This document shows positions 4,897 to 62,995 of a stretch of DNA of 64,000 nt, in pieces; the stretch's first letter is position 1, and each line of letters starts with the position of its first letter. Position numbers and translations under genes: made by a program. The stretch spans positions 2,784,001 through 2,848,000 of the forward strand of contig CP084166.1 of NCBI GenBank assembly GCA_021513695.1, read 5' to 3'. The stretch is from Candidatus Heimdallarchaeum aukensis (lineage in GTDB: Archaea > Asgardarchaeota > Heimdallarchaeia > Heimdallarchaeales > Heimdallarchaeaceae). The notes under the pieces are model-generated. The model did not search any database. It was not told where the DNA came from and saw only the letters and a program-made list of their open reading frames with translations.

Positions 4897-5817
4897 CTAT
4901 CCTTTGACCAATTTTATTATTGCATCTATTATAAAATCTAATAGAAATACAAGGAATACGATTAATAAGATTTCTTTTGTAGTATATGCCCATTTAGGAT
5001 TTTGAGTAATGATTATTGCTATAGCTAAACCTAATACTAGTAGAGCCAAGATAATAGCAATAATAAGTGAGGGTAAGTATAAGTCAGCAATAATCATCGC
5101 ACCAATAGCTCCCCCTGCTAGACCTAGAAGGAAAAAAGCACCTACGATGCCAGCTACTCTTGGACCAAAAACAACAGCTATAGTTTTGTTTCCTGCTTTT
5201 TTATCTCCTTCGATGTCTGGTAAACCTTTTATTACTTCTCTACCTACATTTCCAGAAGCTGCCGCAAGACCTACAATAGTTGGAACCCAAGTAAAACCTT
5301 GTTGATAAACAAAATAACTGAATAGAGATCCATAGACAAAGAGAGCTACAACATTCAATCCAATAAGCACATTACCAAAAAATCCCATCTGTTTTACTTT
5401 GAAATTGTATAAGTTTAATGAACTTCCAAATATTAAAGCTGTAATAACACTTATTCCTGGTAAACCTTCTCTAATATCAATTAACAAAGCTAAAATTAGA
5501 GCGATCAAAGCAACAATTACCCCGTAAATAACTGCTGTTCTTACTGATATTTTCTTTGATGGTATAGGTCTATGTGGAGCATTTACTAGATCTTCTTCTC
5601 TGTCTGCAATATCATTAAAAATCATAGCTTGAGATGAAACGAGCGTACCAGATAATAGAACAAGTAGAAGGGTTATGTAATCAATTTTTGCTCCTACAGG
5701 AGTTGATAGAATGATAGCAAAAATTGCAGCTGTTCCTGCTACTATACCATTTACTAACCTAAGAATTGTTATATAAGAAAGAAAAATATCTTTTTTCGAG
5801 TGTTTTGTTAAAGACAT
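4897..5817 (-). CDS. UbiA-family prenyltransferase, likely digeranylgeranylglyceryl phosphate (DGGGP) synthase
   Basis: Polytopic membrane protein with the NDxxDxxxD motif (NDIADREED) near residue 70 and a second Asp-rich motif (DIEGDKK) near residue 200. Its length of 306 aa is typical of archaeal DGGGPS. Confidence 0.75.
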   Translation of the reverse strand: MSLTKHSKKDIFLSYITILRLVNGIVAGTAAIFAIILSTPVGAKIDYITLLLVLLSGTLVSSQAMIFNDIADREEDLVNAPHRPIPSKKISVRTAVIYGVIVALIALILALLIDIREGLPGISVITALIFGSSLNLYNFKVKQMGFFGNVLIGLNVVALFVYGSLFSYFVYQQGFTWVPTIVGLAAASGNVGREVIKGLPDIEGDKKAGNKTIAVVFGPRVAGIVGAFFLLGLAGGAIGAMIIADLYLPSLIIAIILALLVLGLAIAIIITQNPKWAYTTKEILLIVFLVFLLDFIIDAIIKLVKG

Positions 5818-7240
5818 AAGGTCTAATCATTAGCAGATGAATTTAAATCTTACCTCTTTTTTTGAGTATAAATTACTCGCTTTTTTTTCCTGTTATCTCA
5901 AATGTTTTGATTTCACTATCATTTTCAGGAAGTTTAAGCAGTTCTAAAAGTGATAAGATCATCTTGCCAAATAATTTTTCCATAAATTCATTTAAAGGAA
6001 TCTCTTTTCCATTAATCTTTACTTCTATTTCATCTAACATGAAAAAAAAAACACTGTTGAGTTTATTAATTTTATCTTAATCTCAAATGAATAATTATAA
6101 CTTTTTTAGTTAAAGAATTCACTTAACCAAGAGTTCACTATACTTTTTTGCTAAATTAAATGAAAAAAATTTAAAGAAAAGAAGCAATAAAATTATATTT
6201 AAATATTATGAGCGTAGGTAAGAATATAGGTGTAAATTTTCATGGAAGTAGGTGCGTTAATTTTTATGCTACTAATTGCACTGGCAGTGTACATAACCAT
6301 AAGGGTTTCCTCAGCGAATAAGAAGAAGAGAAAACAAATTTATCGTAAACGATATCAACCTTATCAACCTTACAGACCTTATCAGCCATCACACCTAGAT
6401 TCTTCTCAAAGAACAAGTTATCAGAGTGAAGAAACCACCCCAACAACAAGAACTTCTTCTATTTATCAACCTCAAACTCAACCCTCTTATACTCCACAAA
6501 GAACTCCAATAGCAACAAATAATGCCGATGATTATTATCGTGCAGGAATGTACGATAGAGCAAAAGAAGAATATCTTAAAACAGGGAGGATATTTGGTGC
6601 AGCTAAATCTGTAGCTTCTAAAGGAAAAGAATATGTAAAAGAAGCTTTGGAAATAATTAGACAATATGCTCCAGAAAGAGAAGAAGAAATGGTAAGAAAT
6701 CTTTCAAGATACTTTTTTGATAGTGGAGATGTAGAATTATCAGCTCAAGTATTATATGATTATAATCTTATTGAAGAAGCTAAAGCAGTATTAGCTACCA
6801 TAGGAAAGAGTATAGAAGATATAGTTGAACCTAAATCTGTTGAGATTAGCACATTCAGTAGCACTGAACCCTTTCTATCTAGTACTGAAAGTGAAACAGA
6901 ACCTATCATTTCCAGTTTTGCTAGCGATACTGAACCAATAAATGATGCAAGAGAAGAGCTGAAAGTATTGGCAAGTGAAGAAGAAGCAGAACCCATTGAG
7001 CCTTTTACAAGTCAAGTTGAAAAACAGAAAAAAATAGAACCACAACAACTAAAGATAGCTACAGTAGATTTAGATGAAAGATGTACAGTTTGTTTAGGAG
7101 AAGTAAAAGCAGGAGAAAGTTTTGTTAGATGTCCCCATTGTGGAAAACCTTCTCATTATTCTCATTTAGTAGAATGGCTAAAAGTAAAAACCCAATGTCC
7201 TAACTGTAGAAACAAATTATCATTAAATATGTTTAAAACA
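5098..7240. repeat. tandem direct duplication, copy 1 (2143 bp)
   Basis: Direct sequence comparison: 5098-7240 matches 7241-9381 apart from two 1-bp indels. The left edge lies inside the UbiA CDS. Confidence 0.9.
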
Positions 7241-7264
7241 CGCACCAATAGCTCCCCCTGCTAG
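6242..7264 (+). CDS. membrane-anchored RING-like zinc-finger protein with YQP repeats
   Basis: N-terminal TM helix, a KKKRK stretch, YQPYQPYRPYQP repeats, a low-complexity S/T/E-rich middle, and a C-terminal CxxC-x12-CPHC-x4-HxxH-x10-CPNC (RING/zinc-ribbon-like). The last 7 codons read across the duplication junction. Confidence 0.6.
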   Translation: MEVGALIFMLLIALAVYITIRVSSANKKKRKQIYRKRYQPYQPYRPYQPSHLDSSQRTSYQSEETTPTTRTSSIYQPQTQPSYTPQRTPIATNNADDYYRAGMYDRAKEEYLKTGRIFGAAKSVASKGKEYVKEALEIIRQYAPEREEEMVRNLSRYFFDSGDVELSAQVLYDYNLIEEAKAVLATIGKSIEDIVEPKSVEISTFSSTEPFLSSTESETEPIISSFASDTEPINDAREELKVLASEEEAEPIEPFTSQVEKQKKIEPQQLKIATVDLDERCTVCLGEVKAGESFVRCPHCGKPSHYSHLVEWLKVKTQCPNCRNKLSLNMFKTRTNSSPC

Positions 7265-7959
7265 ACCTAGAAGGAAAAAAGCACCTACGATGCCAGCTAC
7301 TCTTGGACCAAAAACAACAGCTATAGTTTTGTTTCCTGCTTTTTTATCTCCTTCGATGTCTGGTAAACCTTTTATTACTTCTCTACCTACATTTCCAGAA
7401 GCTGCCGCAAGACCTACAATAGTTGGAACCCAAGTAAAACCTTGTTGATAAACAAAATAACTGAATAGAGATCCATAGACAAAGAGAGCTACAACATTCA
7501 ATCCAATAAGCACATTACCAAAAAATCCCATCTGTTTTACTTTGAAATTGTATAAGTTTAATGAACTTCCAAATATTAAAGCTGTAATAACACTTATTCC
7601 TGGTAAACCTTCTCTAATATCAATTAACAAAGCTAAAATTAGAGCGATCAAAGCAACAATTACCCCGTAAATAACTGCTGTTCTTACTGATATTTTCTTT
7701 GATGGTATAGGTCTATGTGGAGCATTTACTAGATCTTCTTCTCTGTCTGCAATATCATTAAAAATCATAGCTTGAGATGAAACGAGCGTACCAGATAATA
7801 GAACAAGTAGAAGGGTTATGTATCAATTTTTGCTCCTACAGGAGTTGATAGAATGATAGCAAAAATTGCAGCTGTTCCTGCTACTATACCATTTACTAAC
7901 CTAAGAATTGTTATATAAGAAAGAAAAATATCTTTTTTCGAGTGTTTTGTTAAAGACAT
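7241..7959 (-). pseudogene. UbiA prenyltransferase fragment (duplicate copy, 3'-truncated and frameshifted)
   Basis: Duplicate of the first ~240 codons of the 4897..5817 gene. A 1-bp deletion breaks the frame, and the C-terminal 66 codons are absent. Confidence 0.8.
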
Positions 7960-9381
7960 AAGGTCTAATCATTAGCAGATGAATTTAAATCTTACCTCTT
8001 TTTTTGAGTATAAATTACTCGCTTTTTTTTCCTGTTATCTCAAATGTTTTGATTTCACTATCATTTTCAGGAAGTTTAAGCAGTTCTAAAAGTGATAAGA
8101 TCATCTTGCCAAATAATTTTTCCATAAATTCATTTAAAGGAATCTCTTTTCCATTAATCTTTACTTCTATTTCATCTAACATGAAAAAAAAAACACTGTT
8201 GAGTTTATTAATTTTATCTTAATCTCAAATGAATAATTATAACTTTTTTAGTTAAAGAATTCACTTAACCAAGAGTTCACTATACTTTTTTGCTAAATTA
8301 AATGAAAAAAATTTAAAGAAAAGAAGCAATAAAATTATATTTAAATATTATGAGCGTAGGTAAGAATATAGGTGTAAATTTTCATGGAAGTAGGTGCGTT
8401 AATTTTTATGCTACTAATTGCACTGGCAGTGTACATAACCATAAGGGTTTCCTCAGCGAATAAGAAGAAGAGAAAACAAATTTATCGTAAACGATATCAA
8501 CCTTATCAACCTTACAGACCTTATCAGCCATCACACCTAGATTCTTCTCAAAGAACAAGTTATCAGAGTGAAGAAACCACCCCAACAACAAGAACTTCTT
8601 CTATTTATCAACCTCAAACTCAACCCTCTTATACTCCACAAAGAACTCCAATAGCAACAAATAATGCCGATGATTATTATCGTGCAGGAATGTACGATAG
8701 AGCAAAAGAAGAATATCTTAAAACAGGGAGGATATTTGGTGCAGCTAAATCTGTAGCTTCTAAAGGAAAAGAATATGTAAAAGAAGCTTTGGAAATAATT
8801 AGACAATATGCTCCAGAAAGGAAGAAGAAATGGTAAGAAATCTTTCAAGATACTTTTTTGATAGTGGAGATGTAGAATTATCAGCTCAAGTATTATATGA
8901 TTATAATCTTATTGAAGAAGCTAAAGCAGTATTAGCTACCATAGGAAAGAGTATAGAAGATATAGTTGAACCTAAATCTGTTGAGATTAGCACATTCAGT
9001 AGCACTGAACCCTTTCTATCTAGTACTGAAAGTGAAACAGAACCTATCATTTCCAGTTTTGCTAGCGATACTGAACCAATAAATGATGCAAGAGAAGAGC
9101 TGAAAGTATTGGCAAGTGAAGAAGAAGCAGAACCCATTGAGCCTTTTACAAGTCAAGTTGAAAAACAGAAAAAAATAGAACCACAACAACTAAAGATAGC
9201 TACAGTAGATTTAGATGAAAGATGTACAGTTTGTTTAGGAGAAGTAAAAGCAGGAGAAAGTTTTGTTAGATGTCCCCATTGTGGAAAACCTTCTCATTAT
9301 TCTCATTTAGTAGAATGGCTAAAAGTAAAAACCCAATGTCCTAACTGTAGAAACAAATTATCATTAAATATGTTTAAAACA
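7241..9381. repeat. tandem direct duplication, copy 2 (2141 bp)
   Basis: Identical to copy 1 except that an 'a' is deleted near 7810 (copy 1 has gtaatc at ~5669) and another near 8820 (copy 1 has aaagagaag at ~6678). Confidence 0.9.
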
Positions 9382-9384
9382 TAA
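8384..9384 (+). pseudogene. RING-like zinc-finger protein, duplicate copy with frameshift
   Basis: Identical to 6242..7264 except for a 1-bp deletion at ~8820. The deletion splits it into ORFs 8384..8836 and 8830..9384. It keeps the apparent native stop (..MFKT*). Confidence 0.8.
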
Positions 9385-9953: not shown

Positions 9954-10271
9954 TTAGTTGAAATAGGAACTGAGTTTCTCTTCTTTTTGGCAAACGTTGC
10001 AGTCTTCTTCTTGATAACTTAATATGTCTCTTGCAATTTTTGCGTTGTGTCTATCCTTCTGAATGCTATAGCAAAGTTTTGAAGGAGAACATGTTCCTTT
10101 TGTAAAGTAGGTCTTCTTATTTGCATTATAGAAAAGTTTTCCTCCTTTTAATGGACAGTTACAAACTTCGATATATACAGGAGAGTTATCATAATTAATG
10201 TTAGTTATCTTAGCAAGTGCTTTTTCTAACCTATTATCCAGATAATGATCTTGAACCTTTTGATAAGTCAT
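9954..10271 (-). CDS. hypothetical Cys-rich small protein (105 aa)
   Basis: ORF with eight Cys (CNCP, C, C, C, CNVC). It sits immediately downstream of the TnpB right end. No family was recognised. Confidence 0.4.
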   Translation of the reverse strand: MTYQKVQDHYLDNRLEKALAKITNINYDNSPVYIEVCNCPLKGGKLFYNANKKTYFTKGTCSPSKLCYSIQKDRHNAKIARDILSYQEEDCNVCQKEEKLSSYFN

Positions 10272-10500
10272 TGTAATTAAATTACAATGTTAAGTATAAA
10301 GATGTGTAATACTTAAGAATTATAGTTAACTAAGTTAGGATATTTTCTCAATAACATGGTCTACTTTTTCCTAAATTCCGATTTAGATTAAAAATCGGAA
10401 GAAGTAGTAAGTTTAGTCGGTGGAAAAAAAGAAAGAGAAAGAACAGCGTAAAAGCTGGTCTAACTAACTTAACTTGCTAACTTATTTTCCAACGGACGGG
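10272..10500 (-). ncRNA. candidate TnpB omega-RNA (reRNA) / IS right-end region
   Basis: Non-coding stretch immediately 3' of and overlapping the tnpB end. It contains stem-loops and is placed by analogy with known IS605 omega-RNA loci. Confidence 0.3.
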
Positions 10501-11736
10501 GTGAACCACTGCAGCCCAGACTATCCCGTAGTTAGACATAACAGAGAATAACGTGGGGAATACTTTGCGACCGATATTACCTGCAGAGTTGATATCAGCA
10601 TTAATTTTTAATCCTCTGGTACTGATGAACAGTCCACGGTGAGTTCTTTTGCCAGCATAATGGGGGTGAAAAGCTATCTCTTCATTATCTAAGAAACTGC
10701 AGACAGAGGTGTAGGACTCTTCGGTAGGAATAACTTTTATCCCTTTTTCTTCTGCTTTGTAAGTGATTTTGTCAATGAGGGATTTAAAGGGGATAAAAAC
10801 AAAGGTTTGATTATTTTTCTTTCCCATATTCACTTTCTGTTTCCATCTGGGGTTGTAACCTATAACTATCGTATCAATGTTTTTTTCTAAACAGTAGTCT
10901 ATTATCTTCCTACTTGCTTTATGGAAATAGTCAGCTATTTTACACATTCGTTCTAACTGGAGAGTAAGCATTTTTCTTCCCCAGGTGGTTAATCCTTGCT
11001 TGTCATAGATTGACTGTAATTTTGCCCTACGTTTATTAAACCACTGATTAACAGCTTTAATGGGTCTACCATTTATCAGAAAACCTTTTTCACCAGGAAT
11101 AGTGGTTAACCCGCCTACAAGGTTATTCACTCCCAGATCAAGAGCTAGAACTCTTTCTGCATGTCGTTTTTTTCGTTCTTCTATCTCTTTCTCGTAAACT
11201 ATCTCTAATTTAAATTTCGTTCCCATAGGTATAAGACGGGCAAACTTCACTTTCGTTGAAGGACACAGTCTTGTAACTATCTTTAGTCCTACACGTTTAG
11301 GGAAAGAGATAAAAAATTTTTCTTTTTCTTGCTCTTTTTCTTCTTTAATTTTCACTTGAGAGTTAGTAAAATAGATTATAGCAAGTCCATCTTTCTTCTT
11401 CTATTTTGGAGGACGGGGTTTACCATTAAACTTTTCTGGTTCTTTTTTGCATTCTTCTAAAGACCTAAAATACCCTTTCCACGCTAAACATAGAAACTTT
11501 ATCGTCTGTTGTGCCGTATGACCAGGTAGTGCTGTGTAGGTCGGGTGATACCTTAAAATATTCATCAGTTCGAACTCTCTCGTGAAATATTTACTTTTTC
11601 TTAACTGATACTTAATAATGTAATTTGCTTGATTATACAAGTTTTTTACCTGGTGTGCCAACTGCTTTAGAGTGATCGATTCTTTCACCCATATTTCCTC
11701 AGTTCGGTACACCTTTTTCCTCATTTTTTCTTTCAT
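10477..11736 (-). pseudogene. tnpB: RNA-guided endonuclease TnpB (OrfB_IS605), interrupted
   Basis: The N-terminal ORF 11401..11736 (HTAQQTIKFL...FNGKPRPPK) and the RuvC-bearing C-terminal ORF 10477..11355 (LALDLGVNN, PTEESYTS, ADINSAGNI) are separated by an in-frame stop or frameshift near 11356-11400. The zinc-finger cysteines are missing. Confidence 0.75.
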
Positions 11737-12015
11737 TTATTTTTACTTTTTTCCCTATTTAAACTCCTCATCTTCCCTCCTCTCCTCTCTTCTCCTCTCC
11801 TTTATTCTTCTTTTTTCCCCCTCTTCTACAACTTCGTAATTTCGGAAAAAGTAAACCATCAGAACTTCTTTTACGCATTTTTTAGTAATTGTTGAACTTA
11901 AGAGTTTCAAGAACTTTTGTAAAGAGAAATAATTTTGAACATTTATTGTAAAAATACTTTAAATAGTGAATTGACTTCTGTTGTACAGAGAGAATTATAT
12001 AAAGAAGTGAAGAAA

Positions 12016-16320: not shown

Positions 16321-16395
16321 TTTTATACTTTATAGTTATTTTATATACTTTATAGTTATTTTATATACTTTATAGTTATTTTATATATTTATGTT
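16321..16395. repeat. 20-bp AT-rich tandem repeat (~3.5 copies; unit tatatactttatagttattt)
   Basis: Direct repeats visible at 16321-16340, 16341-16360 and 16361-16380, with a degenerate fourth copy. Confidence 0.85.
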
Positions 16396-26097: not shown

Positions 26098-29000
26098 TTG
26101 GCAGATCTAAAACTATCAGAAAATGCATTAACAGTACTACAAAAAAGGTACTTACTAAAAAATGAGAAAAACGAAGCAATTGAAACTCCAGAACAGATGT
26201 TTGAAAGAGTGGCAAAAAGTATAGCTTCAAGTGAAGAAGAAAAAAAAGAATTTTATGAATTGATGACTTCTTTAAGATTTCTACCTAACAGCCCTACTCT
26301 TATGAACGCAGGAACGAAGCTAGGTCAACTATCAGCTTGTTTCACTGGAGAGCAAGTAATAATCACAGCTGAAGGAAATAAGCAAATAAAAGATATTCAA
26401 ATTGGAGATTTAGTCCTGACAGCTTCAGGTAATTTTAGAAAGGTTACCCAAACTATGCAAAGAAAAGTTGACAAAAGATACATTATTGATGTTTTGAAAC
26501 TACCTAACTCTACTCTTTCTGTAACAGAAGATCACCCTATTCTTACCTACAAAAATGGAAAAATTAAATGGAGTTTAGTAAAAGAATTAAGTAAAAACGA
26601 TTTTGTAGCTTTATCATACCCAAAGGAAATTGAAGATATTTCTTCAATTAATGTTATAGATTACTTATCTGATAGAGATTATAAAGTAAAGGATGGTATG
26701 ATATTAAATAAAAATACAAAAGTTGGAATAGAATCAGATGAAATAAGTGATCAAGAAATTCCAATAAGAAATAAAATAGAAGTAGATGGAGAGTTTCTTA
26801 GATTTTTAGGTTATTATGCTAGTGTGGGAGAACTAGATAAAAAAATAGTAAGATTTGCTTTTTCAGATAAAGAGATGGATTATGTTGAAGAAGTAATATC
26901 AATTGCAAAAAGTAAATTTGAATTAGATGCAAGAATAGAAAACTCTGATGGAAATATAGTGATTGTGCAATTTTATTCATCCATACTATCTGAATTCGTT
27001 AAGAAAGTCATAGGAGAAGGAAACAACAAAAGAGTTCCCATATGGATATTGAAATTACCTCCAGAAAAACAAGAAAACTTTGTTTTAGGGTGTTTTAGAG
27101 GAGATAACTCTTTATTTTCTAGTAGTTATATGCTTGATGCTCGTTTATCTGCGTGTAATGATAATTTAGTATATTCAATATGGATCATGTTAATGAGAAT
27201 GGGGATAGTTCCCAATCTTGATAAATCCCCTATTCCAAAAGGTGAAACCACCTATTCTTATTCTTGTTATATTGGAGAAACAGAAAAGAGCGATTCCTTT
27301 GTAGAGATTCATGGAAAAGACGGTAAAGGAATTTCTCAATTATCTTTACAAAAATTAAATCATATAATTGTCAATGATACTGTTTTTCTCCCTATACGAA
27401 GTATCGAATGTATCGAAGAACCTGTGACTGTTTATAATCTAGAAGTAGAGGAGGAACATACATATGTTGCAAATTTTGTTTCAGTTCACAATTGTTTTGT
27501 ACTTCCAATAGATGATTCTCTTCCCTCCATTTTTGATGCAGTGAAAAAAGCGGCATTAATACACCAAAGTGGAGGAGGATGCGTTGCTGAAGGAACAGTA
27601 ATACCTACAGAAGAATTCGGTTTTATACCCATTGAAAAGATACCTGGATTTGAAAACATTCCTTCTGACGAACAAGGACATGATTGTGAACCTTTCACTG
27701 TTTATTCATTTGATGAGGACAAAGAATCTTTCACAAAAGGAACAGTAACAAAACTTTGGAAATTCAAGAAAAATAAATATTTGAGCATTAAATTCGGAAC
27801 AGAAGGAGTAATAGAAGTCACACACTGGCATCCTTTCATAGTTTATGTCCCTTCTGAAGAGAAAAAGAAAGGAGGATATTATACAGAAAAAAGAGCAGAT
27901 GAATTGAAAGTTGGAGATCTGTTGGTTAGTCCCTCTACCCATAAGATAACTGAAACTTCTAGTATTTCCGATGTACACAAGGTTAAAGTAGAAGAAATAA
28001 AAGAAATAGAAGAAGAAAAAGTATTTTATGACTTTACAGTACTTAAATATAATAACTATCTAGCAGGTTCTAAACAATTTACAGTTATCCATAATACAGG
28101 TTTTAGCTTTAGTAATATTAGACCAAAAAATGATGTAGTCAAAACTACTGGGGGGGTAGCTTGTTTTCCTGAAGATGTAAGGATTTATACTAACAAGGGA
28201 TTATTAACAATCAAAGATATAATCCAATCTGATCAACCAATTAAAGCTTTGACTCATGATGGATTCCACGAAATAATAAATAAATACGATAACGGAGATG
28301 CTGAAGTTTACAGACTTATTACATCTAATGGATATTCAGTTAAGGCAACCTCTACTCATAAATTTTTAACAATAGAAAATAATGAGTTGGTACTAAAGCC
28401 TCTTAATAAACTTCAAGAAGGAGATTATGTTCTTCTTTTTTCTACTTTTGAATCTGTTGATGAAAAAGAACCATTTAAGCTATCTCCTATTACTGACGAT
28501 GGTCAAACTTTTGATGAAATTTATCTTGATGAAGATCTTGCCTATTTCATAGGATTAACTTATGCAGATGGACATATTATTGATGATGGAAGACATTATA
28601 GCGTAAGAATCACTTTAAACAAGAACCAAATACGTATAATCGAAAAAATAAAGAAAATAGTTCAAACTAAGTTTGACTATGATTTGAAAGTCTATGAGCG
28701 TAAAAATGTAAATAAAGTTGAACTTGTTCTACACGGAAAAAGATTTGTAAAATTGTTAAAAGAAAATAATTTACTTAAAGAAAAATGTGAAAATATTCGT
28801 ATTCCAGAATTATTATTTCAAAGCCCAAGAAATGTCCTAAGCTCATTTATTGCAGGATACTTCGATGGTGATGGTCATGTAAGTAAAAGCGGGCGAATTA
28901 GCATTAAAACAATATCCAAACAAATGAGTGAAGATTTTTCATTATTGATAACGCGGTTAGGTGTACTATCTACAACTCATATTAGTCCCCCTATTTATGG

Positions 29001-32000
29001 AATAAGAAGAAATAAAAAAAGTTACAGAGTTTCAATCCCAACAGCTCTCTTCAAGAAAAGATTTGTAGAACAGCTTTCAAAATACTCAATAAAACTAGAA
29101 AATTATACATTGAAAGAAGGATCTACAAATAAACTTTTTTCTTATCCGTTTAACATCTTAACTCATGTTGGGAATCCTTCCAAGAGGGCAGATATTGCTA
29201 AAACAGTAATACCTTATAACAGAAAGAATACCTATCGTAAAGCTATTCTACGGATTCTTCAAAATTCTAATAAATATGGACTTACACCCGAAGAAATTGC
29301 TTTCTTAAAGAAACTAGAAAATCTTTACCCTGTAAAGATAAAGTCTATTAAAAAAGAAGGAATTGAACGTGTTTATAATCTCGAAGTTAAGAATATCCAT
29401 CGACTTGTGGCTAATGGTTTTTATGTTTCAAATTCAGGCCCCATAAGCTTTATGGAAGTCTTTAATGCTGCAACAAATACTATCAAACAAGGGGGATGTA
29501 TTGCTGCTGAGAGTTTAGTAAGAACTACAAATGGTGTTCTTCCTGCTGGTGATTTACTTAATTGTCCTCCTCTTGGCGAAAACAACACTCAAGAATTAAT
29601 CTATGATGGAGAGTCGTATAACAATGCTTTTCTGTCTCTGGATAACGGTTTTGCGGATGTATTAATTCTTGAAACTGAGCTGGGTTTGACTTTAAAAGCT
29701 ACATATAATCATTTAATTGCTACAGTAGATGAAGACGGGAATATAGTATGGACTGAGGTTGAGAAGATTAAGAAGGGCGATTGGGTTGTAATTGTATTAG
29801 GGGGTCACGTTGGACAAAAAATCTTCCTCCCAAAAATAGAAAATCAACATCATAATGCTAATCCCATTAAAATCCCTGAACAATTTAATGCTGAGCTTGC
29901 CGAAATCTTAGGTTTGTATATGGCTGATGGATGTATTAGTACTGGTGGTCGAATCATCTTTAGTGTCGATAATAAGGATTTAGATCTCATTAAAAGAATC
30001 GAATCTTTAATGAAAAAAGTATTTAATTTAAAACTTGGAAGAATAGAGGATAAACAAACTTACTCGGATGTTATTTTCTATTCTCGTGATCTATGCGACT
30101 ATTTCAGTAAAATGAATTGGAAAAAAGAGTCATCATCAGAAGCTTTTATCCCTCAAGAGATTTTTATTTCTGAACCAGAAATAGCAAAAGCATTCGTCCG
30201 AGGGTTGTTTGAAGGTGATGGTAATGTTCGTTCTGAAGGATATCCAAGGCTTTATTCAACATCTAAAACATTAATTGAACAGACACAACAACTTCTTTTA
30301 GGCCTTAACATTGTTTCTTCTGTAATAAAGGAAGAAGATAGAAGTAATAGTTTAGGTGATTTACCTCTATATGAATTATCAATAATTCCAGAAAGAAGTA
30401 TTATAAAATTCAAAGAAGAAATTGGTTTTATATCAAACAGAAAAAAACAGTTGCTGGAATCTAGGTTTACGGGCAAAAAGTTCGAACAATCAGATATTAT
30501 TCCTAATCAAGGCAAAAAACTGAAAGAGCTATATAGTTATGTTGGTGCAGGGACCAGTAAAGGGAGAAATAAAAAAGGAGCAAACAGAGAATTTTATAGA
30601 GCAATATACCATTATATAAGCGAGAATCCATCTTCTAAAAGAAATTTGACAAGAAAAAGGTTAAATTATTTGATGAAAAATTTCGAACAAGTTAAGAATT
30701 CCAAGCATTTCCAACAGATGTCTGATCCAAAATACTATTTTACAAAGGTTATAGATGTTAAAGAAAATCGAACTTATACAATGGACTTCGAGGTGCCAGA
30801 ATCAAGCAAATTCGTAGCAAATGGTTTCTTAGTACATAATCGTCGTCGTGGGGCTAACATGGGTATCCTTCGTGTTGACCATCCTGATATCATGTCTTGG
30901 ATTACTTGTAAAGAAGACCAGACCAAATTTACTAATTTTAACATTTCTGTTGCAGTTACCTCTGAGTTTATGCAAGCAGTGGAAGAAAACAGAGACTATG
31001 ATCTTATCAATCCTCGCACAAAGAAAGTTGTAGGTAAACTCAATGCTGCTGAAGTTTTTAACAAAATTGTTGAGATGGCTTGGAAAAATGGCGAGCCGGG
31101 TATAGTTTTTATTGACCGTATGAACGAATTCAATCCTACCCCTGAAGTAGGAGATATTGAAAGCACTAATCCTTGTGTAGTGGGTGATTCATTAATATCT
31201 ACAGAATTTGGATTAATGAAAATGCGTGATTTAGTCTCCAAGTTTCCTGAAGGCTCAGTAAAAATAACTACTGATAACCGTGTTCCTCAACAAATATTAA
31301 CATCTGGAAACCAAGTGCAGTTGTTGGATACAAAAACTCAAGGGGTATCATTGAATACTATTACACGTGCTTTCTCTACTGGAATAAAAGATGTATACAA
31401 ACTAACTACAGTGTCAGGTTACGAGTTGAAAGCTACTGGAGACCATAAAGTACTAACCAATGAAGGCTGGGTACAAGTAAAAGACTTAGATGTTAAAAAA
31501 CATAGAGTAAAGATACAATCAGGAGAAGGAGTTTTTAACAGTGTAAAAGAGTTACCCATCAAAGTCGAAAATGAAATAACTGGTGAGAACGGAAGAAAAT
31601 ATAGTTTTAATTTACCAAAAACATGGTCGAAAGAGTTAGGTCATGTACTAGGTTGGCTAGTAGGAGATGGCTGGATAAGGACAGGAGATAAGAATAGAAG
31701 AGTAGGATTTACTTTTTCAAAGAAAGATGAAGAAGTGTTAAAGTATCTCAAGGATGTATTAAATAAATGGTACAACAAACAAATTAATGAAATAAAAAGA
31801 GAAACAAATGTTTATCATTTAAGTTACCATTCAAAATATTTTGTTGATTTCTTCATAAATTTGGGAGTTAAACCAGAAAAATCAGCAAAAAAGGTTGTAC
31901 CTGAGTCAATGTTTCTAGCTACTAAAGAAGCAGTAATTGCTTTCCTACAAGCACTTTTCTCTGCAGATGGAACAATACGTTACTCAAAGAAATCTTCAAG

Positions 32001-33783
32001 CGAATGGATAGCCCTTTCATCAAAAAGTAAAGAATTGCTAAAAGGAGTACAACTGTTACTGTTAAACTTGGGTATCAAATCAAGAATATTTGATCGAACA
32101 AGAAAAAGAAGAGAAAGAACATTCAAGTACATAGATAAAAATGGTTCACTAAAGTATTACAACAGTGATGGAATTCTCTATGAACTGGGAATATTCGGCA
32201 AAAATATTGATATATTCAAGGAAAAAATAAATTTCTTACAGAGGGAGAAAAAAGAAAAACTAGCTAACCTTAAACCAAGAAAAAGAAGAGAAGTCATCTT
32301 TGAAGAGAAGATAAAGAGTATAAAATATGTTGGAAAGGACGAAGTATATGATTTAACTGAACCAAGAACATTAAGCTTCATTGCTAATGGAATAGTAAGT
32401 TTAGATTGCGGAGAGCAGCCCCTTCTCTCTTATGAGTCTTGTAATCTAGGATCAATTAATCTTGTAAGGCATGTTAAAGATGGAGAGATAGATTGGTCTT
32501 TACTTGAATCAACTATCCGTACAGCTGTTCGCTTTTTAGATAATGTTATCGATCGCAATGTTTACATTATTCCTGAAATAGAAGAGATGACCAAAGCCAA
32601 TAGAAAGATAGGCCTTGGGGTAATGGGTTTTGCTGATCTACTTGTTGAGCTCGGTATAAAATATGATACAGAAGAAGCATTGGAAATAGCTGAAAAAGTT
32701 ATGTCTTTCATTCAAAAAGTTGGTCGAGATGAATCTGTTAAATTAGGTGAAGAAAGAGGTAGCTTTCCTAACTTTGATAGAAGTATTTACAGAGGAAAGT
32801 ACAAAGCCATGAGAAATGCAACAATCACAACAATCGCTCCTACAGGAACTATTTCTCTTATTGCTGGGTGTTCAAGCGGTATTGAACCTTATTATGCAAT
32901 AGCTTTTGTGCGAAATATACTAGGTGGAAAGAAACTTTTTGAAATTAATCCCATCTTCGAAAGAATAGCTAAAGAGAAAGGATTCTACTCTGAAGAGCTC
33001 GTAGAAAAAATTTCTTCTGTTCATTCAATACAGAAATTGGATGAAATACCTGAAGAAATAAGAAAGTTGTTTGTAACAAGCCAAGATATTTCTCCAGAGT
33101 GGCACGTAAGAATCCAAGCAGCTTTCCAAAAATACACTGATAACGCTACTAGCAAAACAATTAATTTTTCGAGAGATGCTACAAAAGAAGATATCGCCAA
33201 AGCTTACAAACTCGCCCATAAACTAGGTTGTAAAGGTGTTACTGTTTATCGTGATGGTTCAAGAAAGTATCAAGTATTATCAACAAAGACAAAAAAGAAA
33301 AAGAAAGAAAAGCCAGTAGTTACTTCAGCAAAAGTTGTACCTAGAGCAAGACCAGAAATAACAACAGGTAGAACCCATAAAGTTAGAAGTGGTTGTGGTA
33401 ATCTTTACGTTACTGTTAATCAAGATGAAAATGGAGATATTTTTGAGGTATTTGTTCAAGTAGGTAAATCTGGAGGGTGTATCACCTCTCAAAGCGAGGC
33501 GATTGGAAGATTAATTTCTCTTTCACTTCGTTCGCAGGTTTCAGTTGAATCCATTGTGAGACAACTGTCAGGGATACGCTGTCCTAACCCTAGTTTCTAT
33601 AAAGGAAAAAGTATTCTCTCTTGTGCTGATGGTATAGCTTTAGTGCTTGAACAATATATACAAGGAAATCCTAACGTACGTGAATCTAATGGTTCTATCG
33701 TTTGTCCTGACTGTGGAGGAGTTTTAGCTTTTTCAGAGGGTTGCTATACTTGCACAAGCTGTGGTTATAGTAAATGTAGTTAA
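26098..33783 (+). CDS. nrdJ: adenosylcobalamin-dependent (class II) ribonucleotide reductase precursor carrying five inteins
   Basis: Extein segments: N-terminus LSENALTVLQKRYL..PEQMF, LSA|CFVLPIDDS, HQSGGG|TGFSFSNIRPK, TTGGVA|SGPISFMEVF, RRRGANMGIL, TNP|CGEQPLLSYESCNLG, and a C-terminal Cys4 zinc ribbon. Exteins total ~721 aa. The start codon is TTG. Confidence 0.85.
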   Translation: MADLKLSENALTVLQKRYLLKNEKNEAIETPEQMFERVAKSIASSEEEKKEFYELMTSLRFLPNSPTLMNAGTKLGQLSACFTGEQVIITAEGNKQIKDIQIGDLVLTASGNFRKVTQTMQRKVDKRYIIDVLKLPNSTLSVTEDHPILTYKNGKIKWSLVKELSKNDFVALSYPKEIEDISSINVIDYLSDRDYKVKDGMILNKNTKVGIESDEISDQEIPIRNKIEVDGEFLRFLGYYASVGELDKKIVRFAFSDKEMDYVEEVISIAKSKFELDARIENSDGNIVIVQFYSSILSEFVKKVIGEGNNKRVPIWILKLPPEKQENFVLGCFRGDNSLFSSSYMLDARLSACNDNLVYSIWIMLMRMGIVPNLDKSPIPKGETTYSYSCYIGETEKSDSFVEIHGKDGKGISQLSLQKLNHIIVNDTVFLPIRSIECIEEPVTVYNLEVEEEHTYVANFVSVHNCFVLPIDDSLPSIFDAVKKAALIHQSGGGCVAEGTVIPTEEFGFIPIEKIPGFENIPSDEQGHDCEPFTVYSFDEDKESFTKGTVTKLWKFKKNKYLSIKFGTEGVIEVTHWHPFIVYVPSEEKKKGGYYTEKRADELKVGDLLVSPSTHKITETSSISDVHKVKVEEIKEIEEEKVFYDFTVLKYNNYLAGSKQFTVIHNTGFSFSNIRPKNDVVKTTGGVACFPEDVRIYTNKGLLTIKDIIQSDQPIKALTHDGFHEIINKYDNGDAEVYRLITSNGYSVKATSTHKFLTIENNELVLKPLNKLQEGDYVLLFSTFESVDEKEPFKLSPITDDGQTFDEIYLDEDLAYFIGLTYADGHIIDDGRHYSVRITLNKNQIRIIEKIKKIVQTKFDYDLKVYERKNVNKVELVLHGKRFVKLLKENNLLKEKCENIRIPELLFQSPRNVLSSFIAGYFDGDGHVSKSGRISIKTISKQMSEDFSLLITRLGVLSTTHISPPIYGIRRNKKSYRVSIPTALFKKRFVEQLSKYSIKLENYTLKEGSTNKLFSYPFNILTHVGNPSKRADIAKTVIPYNRKNTYRKAILRILQNSNKYGLTPEEIAFLKKLENLYPVKIKSIKKEGIERVYNLEVKNIHRLVANGFYVSNSGPISFMEVFNAATNTIKQGGCIAAESLVRTTNGVLPAGDLLNCPPLGENNTQELIYDGESYNNAFLSLDNGFADVLILETELGLTLKATYNHLIATVDEDGNIVWTEVEKIKKGDWVVIVLGGHVGQKIFLPKIENQHHNANPIKIPEQFNAELAEILGLYMADGCISTGGRIIFSVDNKDLDLIKRIESLMKKVFNLKLGRIEDKQTYSDVIFYSRDLCDYFSKMNWKKESSSEAFIPQEIFISEPEIAKAFVRGLFEGDGNVRSEGYPRLYSTSKTLIEQTQQLLLGLNIVSSVIKEEDRSNSLGDLPLYELSIIPERSIIKFKEEIGFISNRKKQLLESRFTGKKFEQSDIIPNQGKKLKELYSYVGAGTSKGRNKKGANREFYRAIYHYISENPSSKRNLTRKRLNYLMKNFEQVKNSKHFQQMSDPKYYFTKVIDVKENRTYTMDFEVPESSKFVANGFLVHNRRRGANMGILRVDHPDIMSWITCKEDQTKFTNFNISVAVTSEFMQAVEENRDYDLINPRTKKVVGKLNAAEVFNKIVEMAWKNGEPGIVFIDRMNEFNPTPEVGDIESTNPCVVGDSLISTEFGLMKMRDLVSKFPEGSVKITTDNRVPQQILTSGNQVQLLDTKTQGVSLNTITRAFSTGIKDVYKLTTVSGYELKATGDHKVLTNEGWVQVKDLDVKKHRVKIQSGEGVFNSVKELPIKVENEITGENGRKYSFNLPKTWSKELGHVLGWLVGDGWIRTGDKNRRVGFTFSKKDEEVLKYLKDVLNKWYNKQINEIKRETNVYHLSYHSKYFVDFFINLGVKPEKSAKKVVPESMFLATKEAVIAFLQALFSADGTIRYSKKSSSEWIALSSKSKELLKGVQLLLLNLGIKSRIFDRTRKRRERTFKYIDKNGSLKYYNSDGILYELGIFGKNIDIFKEKINFLQREKKEKLANLKPRKRREVIFEEKIKSIKYVGKDEVYDLTEPRTLSFIANGIVSLDCGEQPLLSYESCNLGSINLVRHVKDGEIDWSLLESTIRTAVRFLDNVIDRNVYIIPEIEEMTKANRKIGLGVMGFADLLVELGIKYDTEEALEIAEKVMSFIQKVGRDESVKLGEERGSFPNFDRSIYRGKYKAMRNATITTIAPTGTISLIAGCSSGIEPYYAIAFVRNILGGKKLFEINPIFERIAKEKGFYSEELVEKISSVHSIQKLDEIPEEIRKLFVTSQDISPEWHVRIQAAFQKYTDNATSKTINFSRDATKEDIAKAYKLAHKLGCKGVTVYRDGSRKYQVLSTKTKKKKKEKPVVTSAKVVPRARPEITTGRTHKVRSGCGNLYVTVNQDENGDIFEVFVQVGKSGGCITSQSEAIGRLISLSLRSQVSVESIVRQLSGIRCPNPSFYKGKSILSCADGIALVLEQYIQGNPNVRESNGSIVCPDCGGVLAFSEGCYTCTSCGYSKCS
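26338..27492 (+). mobile_element. intein 1 (385 aa) with degenerate LAGLIDADG-like motifs
   Basis: Begins CFTGEQ and ends VSVHN, followed by the +1 Cys of extein CFVLP. It is inserted just before the conserved LSxCF cysteine. Confidence 0.75.
27580..28095 (+). mobile_element. intein 2 (172 aa mini-intein)
   Basis: Begins CVAEGT, has block B VTHWHPF, and ends TVIHN with +1 Thr of TGFSFS. No endonuclease domain is present. Confidence 0.75.
28162..29433 (+). mobile_element. intein 3 (424 aa) with LAGLIDADG homing endonuclease
   Basis: Begins CFPEDV. LAGLIDADG motifs are LAYFIGLTYADGH and IAGYFDGDGH. It ends GFYVSN (no penultimate His) with +1 Ser. Confidence 0.75.
29497..30840 (+). mobile_element. 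intein 4 (448 aa) with LAGLIDADG homing endonuclease
   Basis: Begins CIAAESLV. Motifs are LGLYMADGC and VRGLFEGDGN. It ends FLVHN with +1 Arg of RRRGANMG (an unusual +1 residue; the boundary is inferred by extein alignment). Confidence 0.65.
31174..32406 (+). mobile_element. intein 5 (411 aa) with LAGLIDADG homing endonuclease, inserted at the thiyl-radical Cys (TNP|C)
   Basis: Begins CVVGDS. Motifs are LGWLVGDGW and LQALFSADGT. It ends ..IVSLD and is followed by CGEQPL, so the terminal residue is apparently Asp rather than Asn. Confidence 0.65.
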
Positions 33784-62540: not shown

Positions 62541-62995
62541 GTGAAAAAGAAGTTGAAGACATAAAAGAAGTTGAAGACATAAAAGAAGTTGAAGACATAA
62601 AAGAAGTTGAGGAAAGAGAAAAACTTCCAAAAAAAGAAAAAGAAGTTAAAAAAGAGAGAAAAAGTAAATCTTTTCTTCCTAAGATTAAAGAAGTAATCAT
62701 TAAGTCCTCAAATTACTTTTTTGTAGCAATATTATATCTAAAAGTTATCAAACCTGCATTTTATGGCTTAAAAATAGGTGTAAATTTTCTTTTAGAATTA
62801 GGAAAAAATTTCTTTGTAATAGTTTCAAAGTTTTTTTACAAGTTGTATATGGTTATTAAAAAGAACATGGAAGAATTATCATTTTTTGTTCATAGATTTG
62901 AGCGTGCACCGCTTAATCTTCAAATATGGGTTACAAGTGTATTTGTTTTTCTATTAGTTTCAATTTGGATAGCTTTCGGGGGTAGAGTGGGATGA
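62537..62995 (+). CDS. EVEDIK-repeat protein with a C-terminal TM helix
   Basis: Three exact 18-nt repeats (gaagttgaagacataaaa) encode EVEDIK x3 plus a degenerate fourth. The C-terminal part is hydrophobic. Confidence 0.45.
   Translation: MSEKEVEDIKEVEDIKEVEDIKEVEEREKLPKKEKEVKKERKSKSFLPKIKEVIIKSSNYFFVAILYLKVIKPAFYGLKIGVNFLLELGKNFFVIVSKFFYKLYMVIKKNMEELSFFVHRFERAPLNLQIWVTSVFVFLLVSIWIAFGGRVG

Follow-up and report, generated by a model that had tools for sequence, protein, structure and literature searches.

A tnpB-only insertion element with an in-frame stop codon beside radA in Candidatus Heimdallarchaeum aukensis

In the intergenic region between radA and K9W45_12375 of Ca. Heimdallarchaeum aukensis we find a tnpB-only insertion element of 1,502 bp (10356..11857, minus strand) within the 64,000-nt stretch of DNA that was analysed (the window). 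The locus is an ordinary decaying copy of an insertion sequence, dead or dying. We consider it probable that it is a non-autonomous element with IS607-type relatives and that an in-frame TAG in tnpB is what has disabled it.

The interrupted tnpB gene

Two minus-strand open reading frames (ORFs), at 11401-11736 and 10477-11355, had been taken from the sequence as the parts of a solo tnpB without tnpA. Both the coordinates and the assignment hold: no tnpA lies inside the 1,502-bp element, and TnpB profiles align to the joined product straight through the break. For NF040570 the score is 155 bits (3e-45, residues 22-391), which exceeds the curated cut-off of 100 that we use as the rule for TnpB membership; PF01385 and PF07282 give 66 and 37 bits, respectively. 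The closest homologs are Heimdallarchaeaceae TnpBs, with identities up to 91%.

The two ORFs lie in one and the same frame with a single TAG between them (codon 112, 11401..11403, minus strand), which rules out the programmed frameshift that had been put forward as a possibility. Alignment to intact TnpBs, proposed as the way to place a frameshift, shows instead that the TAG replaces the near-invariant Tyr in PRPPK-Y-KKK: all intact relatives in the alignment have Tyr at this position, and the codon is TAT in the intact copies L004 and L003. The unbroken frame corresponds to a product of 419 aa, of which codons 1-111 form the N-terminal fragment (11404..11736, minus strand) and codons 113-419, with the stop, the RuvC-bearing fragment (10477..11400, minus strand). 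As read from the codons, the change from TAT to TAG truncates the predicted protein after 111 residues. The N-terminal fragment also holds a W96C change (TGC at 11449-11451) at an otherwise conserved Trp. GenBank likewise splits the gene and holds the 292-aa ORF as UJG40617.1.

It is scarcely credible that faulty sequencing or assembly of this genome produced the stop codon. A local assembly error could be imagined from the two single-base indels in a nearby tandem duplication, but the TAG, W96C and D158C are all present in L021, an independent metagenome assembly with 98.5% DNA identity, and the deposited annotation splits the gene as well. Given its presence in L021, the TAG has been inherited.

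A functional gene would require that the TAG is read through or recoded (e.g. as pyrrolysine), or that the fragments of 111 aa and 292 aa act together as a split TnpB. Both fragments are otherwise open in two lineages and the catalytic residues D200, E340 and D381 are retained. Moreover, the substitutions that separate the window from L021 and date from the time after the TAG arose (6 synonymous, 7 non-synonymous) yield an omega of 0.30 (p = 0.036 against neutrality), a hint that some constraint persists or that intact copies have converted the gene. However, thirteen substitutions carry little weight, and such conversion could also lower omega. In the non-coding right end the same two copies differ by 5 substitutions over 117 positions and a 4-nt indel, a rate at least as high as that of synonymous sites.

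Several observations speak against function. Of 51 long ORFs in the window, 12 (24%) end in TAG, which is therefore an ordinary stop here; the 12 include radA and the dCTP-deaminase-like gene, whose product lengths match those of their homologs. A tRNA search of the window finds no gene of any kind. In addition to the Tyr shared by the intact relatives, the conserved Trp is lost (the sibling P0132 retains both residues), and the other two copies of the cluster in this genome are also damaged, though differently: UJG41652.1 begins at the same internal GTG and has its RuvC-I Asp changed to Val, while UJG42125.1 is cut within RuvC-I. We regard a gene that still functions as highly improbable. Equally little probability is given to low-level read-through or a split nuclease as the meaning of a TAG that has persisted in two or more diverged lineages, at an omega of about 0.3; if true, this would point to a throttled RNA-guided nuclease, or to a guide RNA retained to serve the host at the radA promoter region.

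A decaying copy thus remains our reading, and it draws on the in-frame TAG, the lost Trp, the damaged sister copies and the fast change of the right end. The missing zinc finger, which had been counted towards decay, drops out of this argument. The C4 cysteines are indeed absent between RuvC-II and RuvC-III (a single Cys346 is left), but the reduction is common to all 19 aligned relatives, and absence of the zinc finger is reported for several (some large) TnpB branches (PMC10691335). By sequence the catalytic D-E-D set is present. In the alignment of relatives, RuvC-I D200 (11137-11139) lies in LDLGVNN (a DLG motif) and RuvC-III D381 (10594-10596) in NADxN. The canonical RuvC-II Glu site reads Gly across the clade (Gly293, 10858-10860, motif IVIGYN), and a near-invariant Glu340 (10717-10719) takes the alternative RuvC-II position, six positions ahead of the first zinc-finger Cys position (all on the minus strand). 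Judged from the alignment, the absent zinc finger and the Gly at RuvC-II are best read as traits of the clade, of the known E-alt TnpB type, and not as decay. The named zinc-finger-less clade RIIIr-4 was rejected as a match: the RuvC-III Asp has become His there and is kept here.

Extent and ends of the element

The boundaries were obtained by comparing the filled site with empty sites of related genomes. Four empty sites (L019, L023, L024 and L026) read CTTTGAT/GTTATTGAG, where the slash marks the junction, and the occupied site in the window reads TTCTGAT/GGTTTAC...GTAGACCAT/GTTATTGAG. At the L004 site a VOC-like gene is restored in frame without the element. The four empty sites and this in-frame gene together establish the boundaries and the absence of a target duplication; the empty allele itself is directly observed for one insertion site only, and each boundary is ambiguous by the common ATG/AT core. 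Similarity to copies at other insertion places ends at 11861 and 10353. Further copies can be searched for with the element-end sequences, ATGGTYTACTTTTTCC and the right-end sequence.

The span of 10272-11880 proposed from the sequence is accordingly replaced by about 10356-11857. Its 205-bp gap after the gene is the right end in part: some 121 nt (10356-10476) belong to the element, and the other 84 nt (10272-10355) are native intergenic DNA, which the empty sites contain as well. Concerning the surroundings, radA was correctly named as a neighbour; on the other side a hypothetical gene of 105 aa (9954-10271) is the nearest gene and the dCTP-deaminase/dUTPase-like gene, given as the neighbour before, follows one gene beyond. 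The raised local GC was confirmed: the element has 36.2% and the window 31.7% on average, which places the element among the top 1.4% of 1.5-kb windows. Nearby lies a 2.1-kb tandem duplication (5098-9381), the copies of which differ by two single-base indels only.

Both termini are inverted repeats. The left arm ATGGTTTACTTTTTCCGAAATTACGA (11834..11859, minus strand; it contains one TTCCGAAAT motif) pairs with the right arm TCGGAATTTAGGAAAAAGTAGACCAT (10356..10381, minus strand): 23 of 26 positions are identical between the left arm and the reverse complement of the right one, exactly at the termini and over non-palindromic sequence. The ungapped score is 17 (shuffles: mean 9.8, maximum 13). 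Across 69 loci the excess is modest, with 9 inverted matches of at least 26 bits against 5 on the same strand, and in the autonomous IS607-like relatives the inverted repeats are short and inconsistent. The right end further has a palindrome, TTCCGATTT-TTAATCT-AAATCGGAA (10376..10400, minus strand), made of two inverted TTCCGATTT motifs. Its hairpin CCGATTT..AAATCGG, already pointed out after the gene, is found at 10378-10398 and is unique in the window; it is significant as a single-stranded DNA fold (z = -3.1), and among copies the stem is retained and the loop variable. The left-end hairpin is not significant (z = -0.4). TTCCGAWWT occurs five times in the whole 64 kb, three of them in the two element ends.

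At the left, the element is flanked by CTGAT (TTGAT in the empty site; 11858..11862, minus strand), a candidate TAM or target motif in which AT is the candidate crossover core. The left junction has GATG in all four independent insertion sites and TGATG in three of them. When the site is occupied ATG stands at both junctions, and once when it is empty; the L004 site follows the same pattern, and at the L108 site only AT is common to the junctions. At both sites with full junctions the right-flanking bases are alike (G, then TT). The host flank at the right, GTTATTGAGAAAATATCCTA (10336..10355, minus strand), adjoins TTGAT in the empty sites; from the way TnpB works (PMC10711439), we infer that this is what an omega-RNA guide would carry. 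Within the element, TTTAAATA (11756..11763, minus strand), about 24 nt upstream of the ATG, is a likely archaeal TATA box, and GGTTTAAATA-like boxes are found equally far from the ATG in L004, L003, L110, L112 and L108; we infer that it is a promoter element.

Transposon family and candidate omega-RNA

Evidence from relatives suggests that the element is of the IS607 type and not of the IS605 type. Among 150 neighbour ORFs of clade loci, 12 match Resolvase and NF033518 ('IS607 family transposase'). An IS607-type serine recombinase lies directly upstream of tnpB in 14 related loci and tnpA remnants are present in 4 more (L029 and L030 among them), making it the only transposase linked to relatives. 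Clustering 179 neighbour ORFs with BLAST produces no group larger than two besides this recombinase. The loci with a linked serine recombinase have a TnpB that is only 35-46% identical to that of the window; neither the window nor any Heimdall-clade locus showed such a recombinase. When the serine recombinase of L028 is used as query, the homologs returned are close metagenomic relatives only and are uninformative on Heimdallarchaeia. The element agrees with published IS607 features: crossover at a dinucleotide, no target duplication, and ends that have inverted repeats of imperfect match with repeated motifs close by (PMC6188088, PMC10711439). The IS607 label is weakened by the fact that PMC6188088 describes these elements as without terminal inverted repeats in the strict sense, which are seen here.

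The sequence-only reading had labelled the element IS605/IS1341-like. In that case it would belong to the IS200/IS605 family (IS1341 group), insert 3' of TTGAT and travel in single-stranded form, with a Y1 HUH TnpA provided in trans. We consider this possible though unlikely. The left flank is TTGAT-like at three of four sites and GATG at all four, target duplication is absent, the right end has a strong subterminal hairpin, and the same palindrome lies near both ends of L108; moreover, tnpB-only elements of IS605 type are frequent in archaea (PMC3119063). The TTGAT/TGATG left flank with a right end finishing in CAT is compatible with target-site insertion of the IS200/IS605 kind as well. Part of this evidence does not discriminate: insertion 3' of a fixed motif of 4-5 nt without duplication fits IS200/IS605 but is predicted likewise by the IS607 model, and the identical palindromes close to both L108 ends fit either family. 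What makes the label doubtful is that the serine recombinase is the only recurrent neighbour family over about 75 clade loci, with no Y1 transposase listed among the recurrent families of the 150 neighbour ORFs, and that true terminal inverted repeats are present, whereas an IS605-type element has, by definition, none (PMC3119063, PMC7290912). The insignificant left-end hairpin and the identical right-flanking bases at the two full-junction sites likewise count against it.

Inverted-repeat ends with ATG on both sides when occupied and once when empty might also be taken for a DDE cut-and-paste element with a 3-bp ATG target duplication, and DDE-linked TnpBs do have inverted terminal repeats (PMC10691335). 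Since the same ATG recurs at two independent insertions and AT alone at L108, the pattern looks like a fixed recombination core and not like an arbitrary target duplication; in addition, no recurrent DDE transposase was found beside clade members. We hold a DDE element to be very unlikely.

The TnpB of the element belongs to a clade without a zinc finger, with a rearranged RuvC-II (E-alt) and an NADxN RuvC-III, whose autonomous relatives carry an IS607-type serine recombinase. For the preferred IS607-type reading we propose the following course. Such a recombinase, supplied in trans, would cross over at the AT core common to both ends and the target, and the element would move as double-stranded DNA without target duplication. 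A guide RNA, transcribed from the ORF's 3' end and the 121-nt tail, would continue into the adjoining flank (GUUAUUGAG...) and lead TnpB to cleave the vacated site (TGATG plus flank), after which the element would be copied back. In the window copy this cutting step would have been lost.

The candidate omega-RNA scaffold comprises the non-coding right end (121 nt, 10356..10476, minus strand) and the 3' end of the ORF. This right end is conserved among all close copies. The right end was thus recognized correctly; an omega-RNA is plausible by position, and statistical tests lend it no support. Rfam scans return nothing relevant, whether run at the gathering threshold or with E <= 10. The covariance model R1, made from six close copies for the kind of search proposed with the original label, recovers L107 only (E = 0.21); its automatic alignment took in antisense hits and was left out of the pair counts. 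The 285-nt 3' region of the window folded alone is not significant (z = -1.4), nor is the proposed ORF-end stem (10485-10497 with 10416-10428 in the window) at seven loci compared with shuffles (best z = -1.5). A family-wide duplex test, which paired the final 48 nt of the ORF with the 250 nt that follow at 83 loci, shows no signal (mean z of -0.1). RNAalifold on five close copies predicts 66 pairs with 0 compensatory changes, because these copies are too similar, and no significant covariation is present in the right-end alignments. By eye, the stems of the window and L107 show an apparent A-U to G-C double change, which we did not count as support. A paper on circular omega-RNAs (PMC12558985) has no content on element ends.

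Comparison with known systems

With the IS607 family (e.g. IS607, IS1535 and ISXfa1) the element shares the absence of a target duplication, a short core common to junctions and target, and tnpB at the right end with a non-coding tail, while in relatives TnpA lies directly upstream. A further likeness is that short repeated motifs and an inverted repeat of imperfect match lie near the ends (PMC6188088, PMC10711439). In contrast, the window copy has no tnpA, its core is AT(G) and not GG, its inverted repeat lies right at the termini and is of unusual length (23/26), and the Heimdall sub-clade has shown no serine recombinase so far. Resemblance to the IS1341 group of IS200/IS605 lies in a solo tnpB of about 1.5 kb, no duplication, a right-end hairpin and a TTGAT-like left flank (the same as the ISDra2 TAM); the terminal inverted repeats, the weak left hairpin and the lack of a linked Y1 TnpA in any clade member examined set it apart.

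On the protein side the closest likeness is to E-alt TnpBs (the RIIr groups of Altae-Tran et al. 2023; the 'E-alt + D-Phi-G' clade of Yoon et al. 2023): the Gly of IVIGYN, an alternative Glu six before the first zinc-finger Cys, a D-L-G RuvC-I and an NADxN RuvC-III (PMC10691335, PMC10711439). This likeness is one of motifs; the C4 zinc finger of the window copy is down to one Cys. Fanzor and pro-Fanzor proteins likewise have the alternative RuvC-II glutamate, and IS607-type partners occur in relatives; the window copy lacks their fingerprint, with DLG in RuvC-I alongside E-alt instead of the diagnostic DPG (PMC10711439) and no zinc finger. A zinc-finger-less E-alt TnpB family is thereby documented in the archaeal lineage closest to eukaryotes, and its solo elements have clear inverted-repeat ends with an AT core between them. 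Should these genomes prove to contain a matching serine recombinase, the intact L004 copy of H. endolithica, with defined ends, a TGATG-type flank and a candidate flank-derived guide, would be a candidate Asgard TnpB test system.

As a broken gene the locus is a routine case: archaea very commonly have broken tnpB genes, and GenBank already annotates the fragment as TnpB-related. The locus also shows how labels given from the sequence alone (IS605/IS1341, a zinc finger lost by decay, a frameshift) shift once relatives and empty sites are taken into account. In the haloarchaeon Haloquadratum walsbyi, about 80% of tnpB genes are broken by in-frame stops, frameshifts or deletions (PMC3119063). 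The decay seen here is of the same kind, in another archaeal phylum and another TnpB clade.

Reading frame and decay of tnpB

The feature is real but ordinary: a decaying copy of a TnpB insertion element, which is already annotated as TnpB-related. Both minus-strand ORFs lie exactly where the sequence-only reading placed them (11401-11736, 111 aa, and 10477-11355, 292 aa). The 292-aa fragment is the deposited UJG40617.1 and the adjoining 105-aa ORF is UJG40616.1 (K9W45_12375), both in the 3.08-Mb complete genome of Candidatus Heimdallarchaeum aukensis. Straight-through translation puts the two ORFs in one frame with a single TAG between them (11401-11403), and the 15 codons from this TAG to the GTG chosen as start by the ORF finder are open and part of the same TnpB protein. 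The joined product (419 residues) matches the curated TnpB model NF040570 across the stop (residues 22-391, 155 bits at a cut-off of 100 bits) and also Pfam OrfB_IS605 and Cas12f1-like_TNB; the best homologs are uninterrupted TnpBs of Heimdallarchaeaceae (identity up to 91%). Given the shared frame and the profile match across the single TAG, the break is a nonsense codon, and the programmed frameshift proposed earlier is excluded.

Alignment of 20 sequences shows that the TAG replaces a nearly invariant Tyr (motif PRPPK-Y-KKK). Intact copies carry TAT at this codon, so the lesion amounts to one T-to-G change. Sixteen codons upstream, another nearly invariant position has changed from Trp96 to Cys (TGG to TGC). 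Of 51 long ORFs in the window, 12 end in TAG, which is therefore an ordinary stop in H. aukensis; no tRNA genes were found in the window. Sequencing error as the source of the TAG was rejected: contig L021, which comes from a separate metagenome assembly and has the element at the same site (98.5% DNA identity), shares TAG, W96C and D158C with the window copy, and the stop is thus inherited.

Decay, suspected from the start, is borne out by the TAG, by W96C and by damage in the two further copies in the H. aukensis genome that belong to the same 90% cluster: UJG41652.1 starts at the same internal GTG and reads LALVLGVNN where LALDLGVNN is expected, and UJG42125.1 starts inside RuvC-I. P0132, a near sibling from another assembly, retains both Tyr and Trp. 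Since the shared TAG, the window and L021 have come to differ by 6 synonymous and 7 non-synonymous coding changes (substitution ratio omega 0.30, a borderline departure from neutrality with p = 0.036 on 13 changes); omega is 0.10 for the adjacent host genes. The non-coding right ends differ at 5 of 117 aligned positions and by a 4-nt indel, and the 84-nt host flank shows no differences. The low omega of tnpB could result from gene conversion by intact copies. Disruption of tnpB is usual in some archaea and affects about 80% of these genes in Haloquadratum (PMC3119063).

Boundaries and ends of the element

Homology between the window and copies inserted elsewhere (L001, L002 and the intact H. 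endolithica copy L004 at one site, L003 at another) is confined to about 11861-10353. Four assemblies, the complete H. endolithica genome among them, have the uninserted junction between radA and the 105-aa gene. Comparison of this empty site (...CTTTGAT/GTTATTGAGAAAATATGC...) with the occupied window site (...TTCTGAT/GGTTTAC...GTAGACCAT/GTTATTGAG...) therefore gives an element of 1,502 bp (10356-11857, minus strand), with each junction ambiguous by 3 nt (ATG) and no target duplication. By the same comparison, the element takes up only 121 nt of the 205-nt gap that follows the gene, all of which had been credited to it; the remainder lies outside. In L004 the element interrupts a VOC/glyoxalase-like gene, and its removal restores the frame (...VVE-TSNEV...). 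radA and K9W45_12375 are divergent genes, and the window element separates them, lying 84 nt upstream of the K9W45_12375 ATG; a conserved TATA-like box precedes the tnpB ATG by 24 nt. As first noticed, GC is indeed locally raised: the element has 36.2% and the window 31.7%, which places the element among the highest 1.4% of 1.5-kb windows.

When the last 26 nt (ATGGTCTACTTTTTCCTAAATTCCGA) are reverse-complemented, they agree with the first 26 nt (ATGGTTTACTTTTTCCGAAATTACGA) at 23 of 26 positions, with a score exceeding that of every shuffle, and this terminal inverted repeat lies exactly at the termini fixed independently by the empty sites. GATG is found at the left junction in all four independent insertion sites and right ends terminate in ...CAT, so that AT is common to both junctions in every lineage. 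Three of the five occurrences of TTCCGAWWT in the 64-kb window fall in the element's two ends. A strong palindrome or hairpin is present at the right end (z about -3) and not at the left (z = -0.4).

Near the ORFs of distant TnpB relatives, a perfect 24-nt inverted repeat is seen in L033 (571-594 and 1863-1886) and a 24/26 repeat in L007 (2873-2898 and 4219-4244); inverted-repeat ends thus extend beyond the window's lineage. A purine-rich, GGAGA-like tract (minus-strand 11770-11830) separates the left end from the tnpB promoter; its length differs among copies (about 29 nt shorter in the window than in L001 and L003), and a pyrimidine-rich tract occupies the mirror position in the right end (10416-10445). 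The short-read (Logan) contigs L017 and L018 stop inside the right-end hairpin (their position 1 being window 10391), which is the expected effect on assembly of a repeat in several genomic copies.

Elsewhere in the window, 5098-7240 and 7241-9381 form a head-to-tail tandem duplication of 2,143 bp (0 mismatches, 2 single-base indels) covering part of a UbiA-like gene together with a RING-finger gene; L017, L019 and L021 have a single copy, and the duplication is either very recent or an assembly artefact. Of the two RING-finger copies, 6242-7264 (340 aa) is intact and 8384-8836 plus 8830-9384 is frameshifted. The C-terminal RING finger of 6242-7264 and 8830-9384 (zf-RING_2, E = 1.6e-6) occurs here in an Asgard genome, and the position of the gene beside a dCTP-deaminase-like gene is conserved in all related assemblies. 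Further features are a very long plus-strand ORF (26098-33783, 2,561 aa), three and a half intergenic tandem copies of a 20-nt AT-rich unit (16321-16390, TTATATACTTTATAGTTATT) and an 18-nt tandem repeat within a small ORF (62545-62634, AAAAGAAGTTGAAGACAT) encoding a repeated KEVEDI-like peptide.

Transposase family and candidate right-end RNA

The element was initially labelled IS605/IS1341-like, and this label probably shifts to IS607. In a scan of 150 of the 179 ORFs beside TnpBs of the clade (about 75 loci), the sole recurrent mobile-element partner was a serine recombinase, with Pfam Resolvase in 12 of the 150 and the NCBIfam 'IS607 family transposase' in 12 (best E = 5e-56). When all 179 ORFs are clustered by BLAST, this gene lies immediately upstream of tnpB, in the same orientation, at 14 loci, among them the closest relatives outside Heimdall; every other neighbour group has at most two members. 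Immediately upstream of tnpB, L029 (1125-1214) and L030 (188-271) retain no more of an IS607-type tnpA than its final ~30 codons, and the solo TnpBs of the clade thus arise via tnpA deletion.

PMC6188088 and PMC10711439 describe IS607 crossover at a dinucleotide matching in both ends and the target, without duplication, as well as a fixed right-flanking base, imperfect inverted repeats and short repeated motifs near the ends. The element fits this biology in its candidate crossover core, right-flanking base, lack of duplication, inverted repeats and end motifs. On these sequence grounds, together with the serine-recombinase neighbours, we moderately favour an IS607-type element that has no tnpA. 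That it is of IS605 type seems rather unlikely: such elements lack terminal inverted repeats by definition (PMC3119063, PMC7290912) and the only recurrent partner is of IS607 type, even though the TTGAT-like flank also suits IS605 targeting, identical palindromes lie near both ends of the related element L108, and the serine recombinase is not seen in the Heimdall sub-clade. L108 (1500-1640; TnpB with 59% aa identity) has its right end ~55 nt upstream of a tRNA-like gene, possibly intron-containing as read by eye.

Under the IS607-type reading, a serine recombinase acting in trans would mobilise the element as double-stranded DNA, a right-end RNA would be transcribed, running on into the flank, and TnpB would cut the vacated TGATG-plus-flank site, restoring the element. 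The nuclease of the window copy is truncated after 111 residues, so passive persistence is all that remains.

From the way TnpB systems work, a guide RNA from the element would be expected, the GTTATTGAG... flank serving as guide. The 121-nt tail is conserved among close copies, with a constant hairpin stem and a variable loop. The last codons, GTCCGTTGGAAAA (10485-10497), could plausibly pair with TTTTTCCACCGAC (10416-10428); the equivalent strands of L107 (64% aa identity) are GTCGTTTGAAAG and CTTTCTAACGAC, after which come an identical TAAAC and a hairpin whose sequence is unrelated. Formal tests gave the suggested omega-RNA no structural support: the tail has no Rfam match, close copies hold no compensatory pairs, the covariance-model search called for earlier retrieved L107 only (E = 0.21), and the ORF-end stem does not outperform shuffles (z about -1.4).

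RuvC and zinc finger compared with known systems

The zinc-finger cysteines are absent, as the sequence-only reading stated, but this is no sign of decay: CxxC...CxxC is missing in all 19 aligned relatives, which read YTSxCSFLDxE...RGLF...NADxN. Altae-Tran et al. 2023 report loss of the finger from several large branches of TnpB (PMC10691335). D200, E340 and D381 are all present in the window copy, and the Asp in RuvC-III (NADIN) rules out the RIIIr-4 clade, which has His. Alignment to the MEDL motif of a solved Cas12f sets the canonical RuvC-II Glu position at a Gly (IVIGYN) that is nearly invariant across the clade; Glu340, further along the protein, is nearly invariant instead. This combination matches the published rearrangement in which Glu to Gly is compensated by an alternative Glu (PMC10691335), and the position of Glu340 matches that of 'E-alt', which precedes the first zinc-finger Cys by six residues (PMC10711439). 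Unlike Fanzors, which are marked by DPG, the window TnpB has DLG in RuvC-I.
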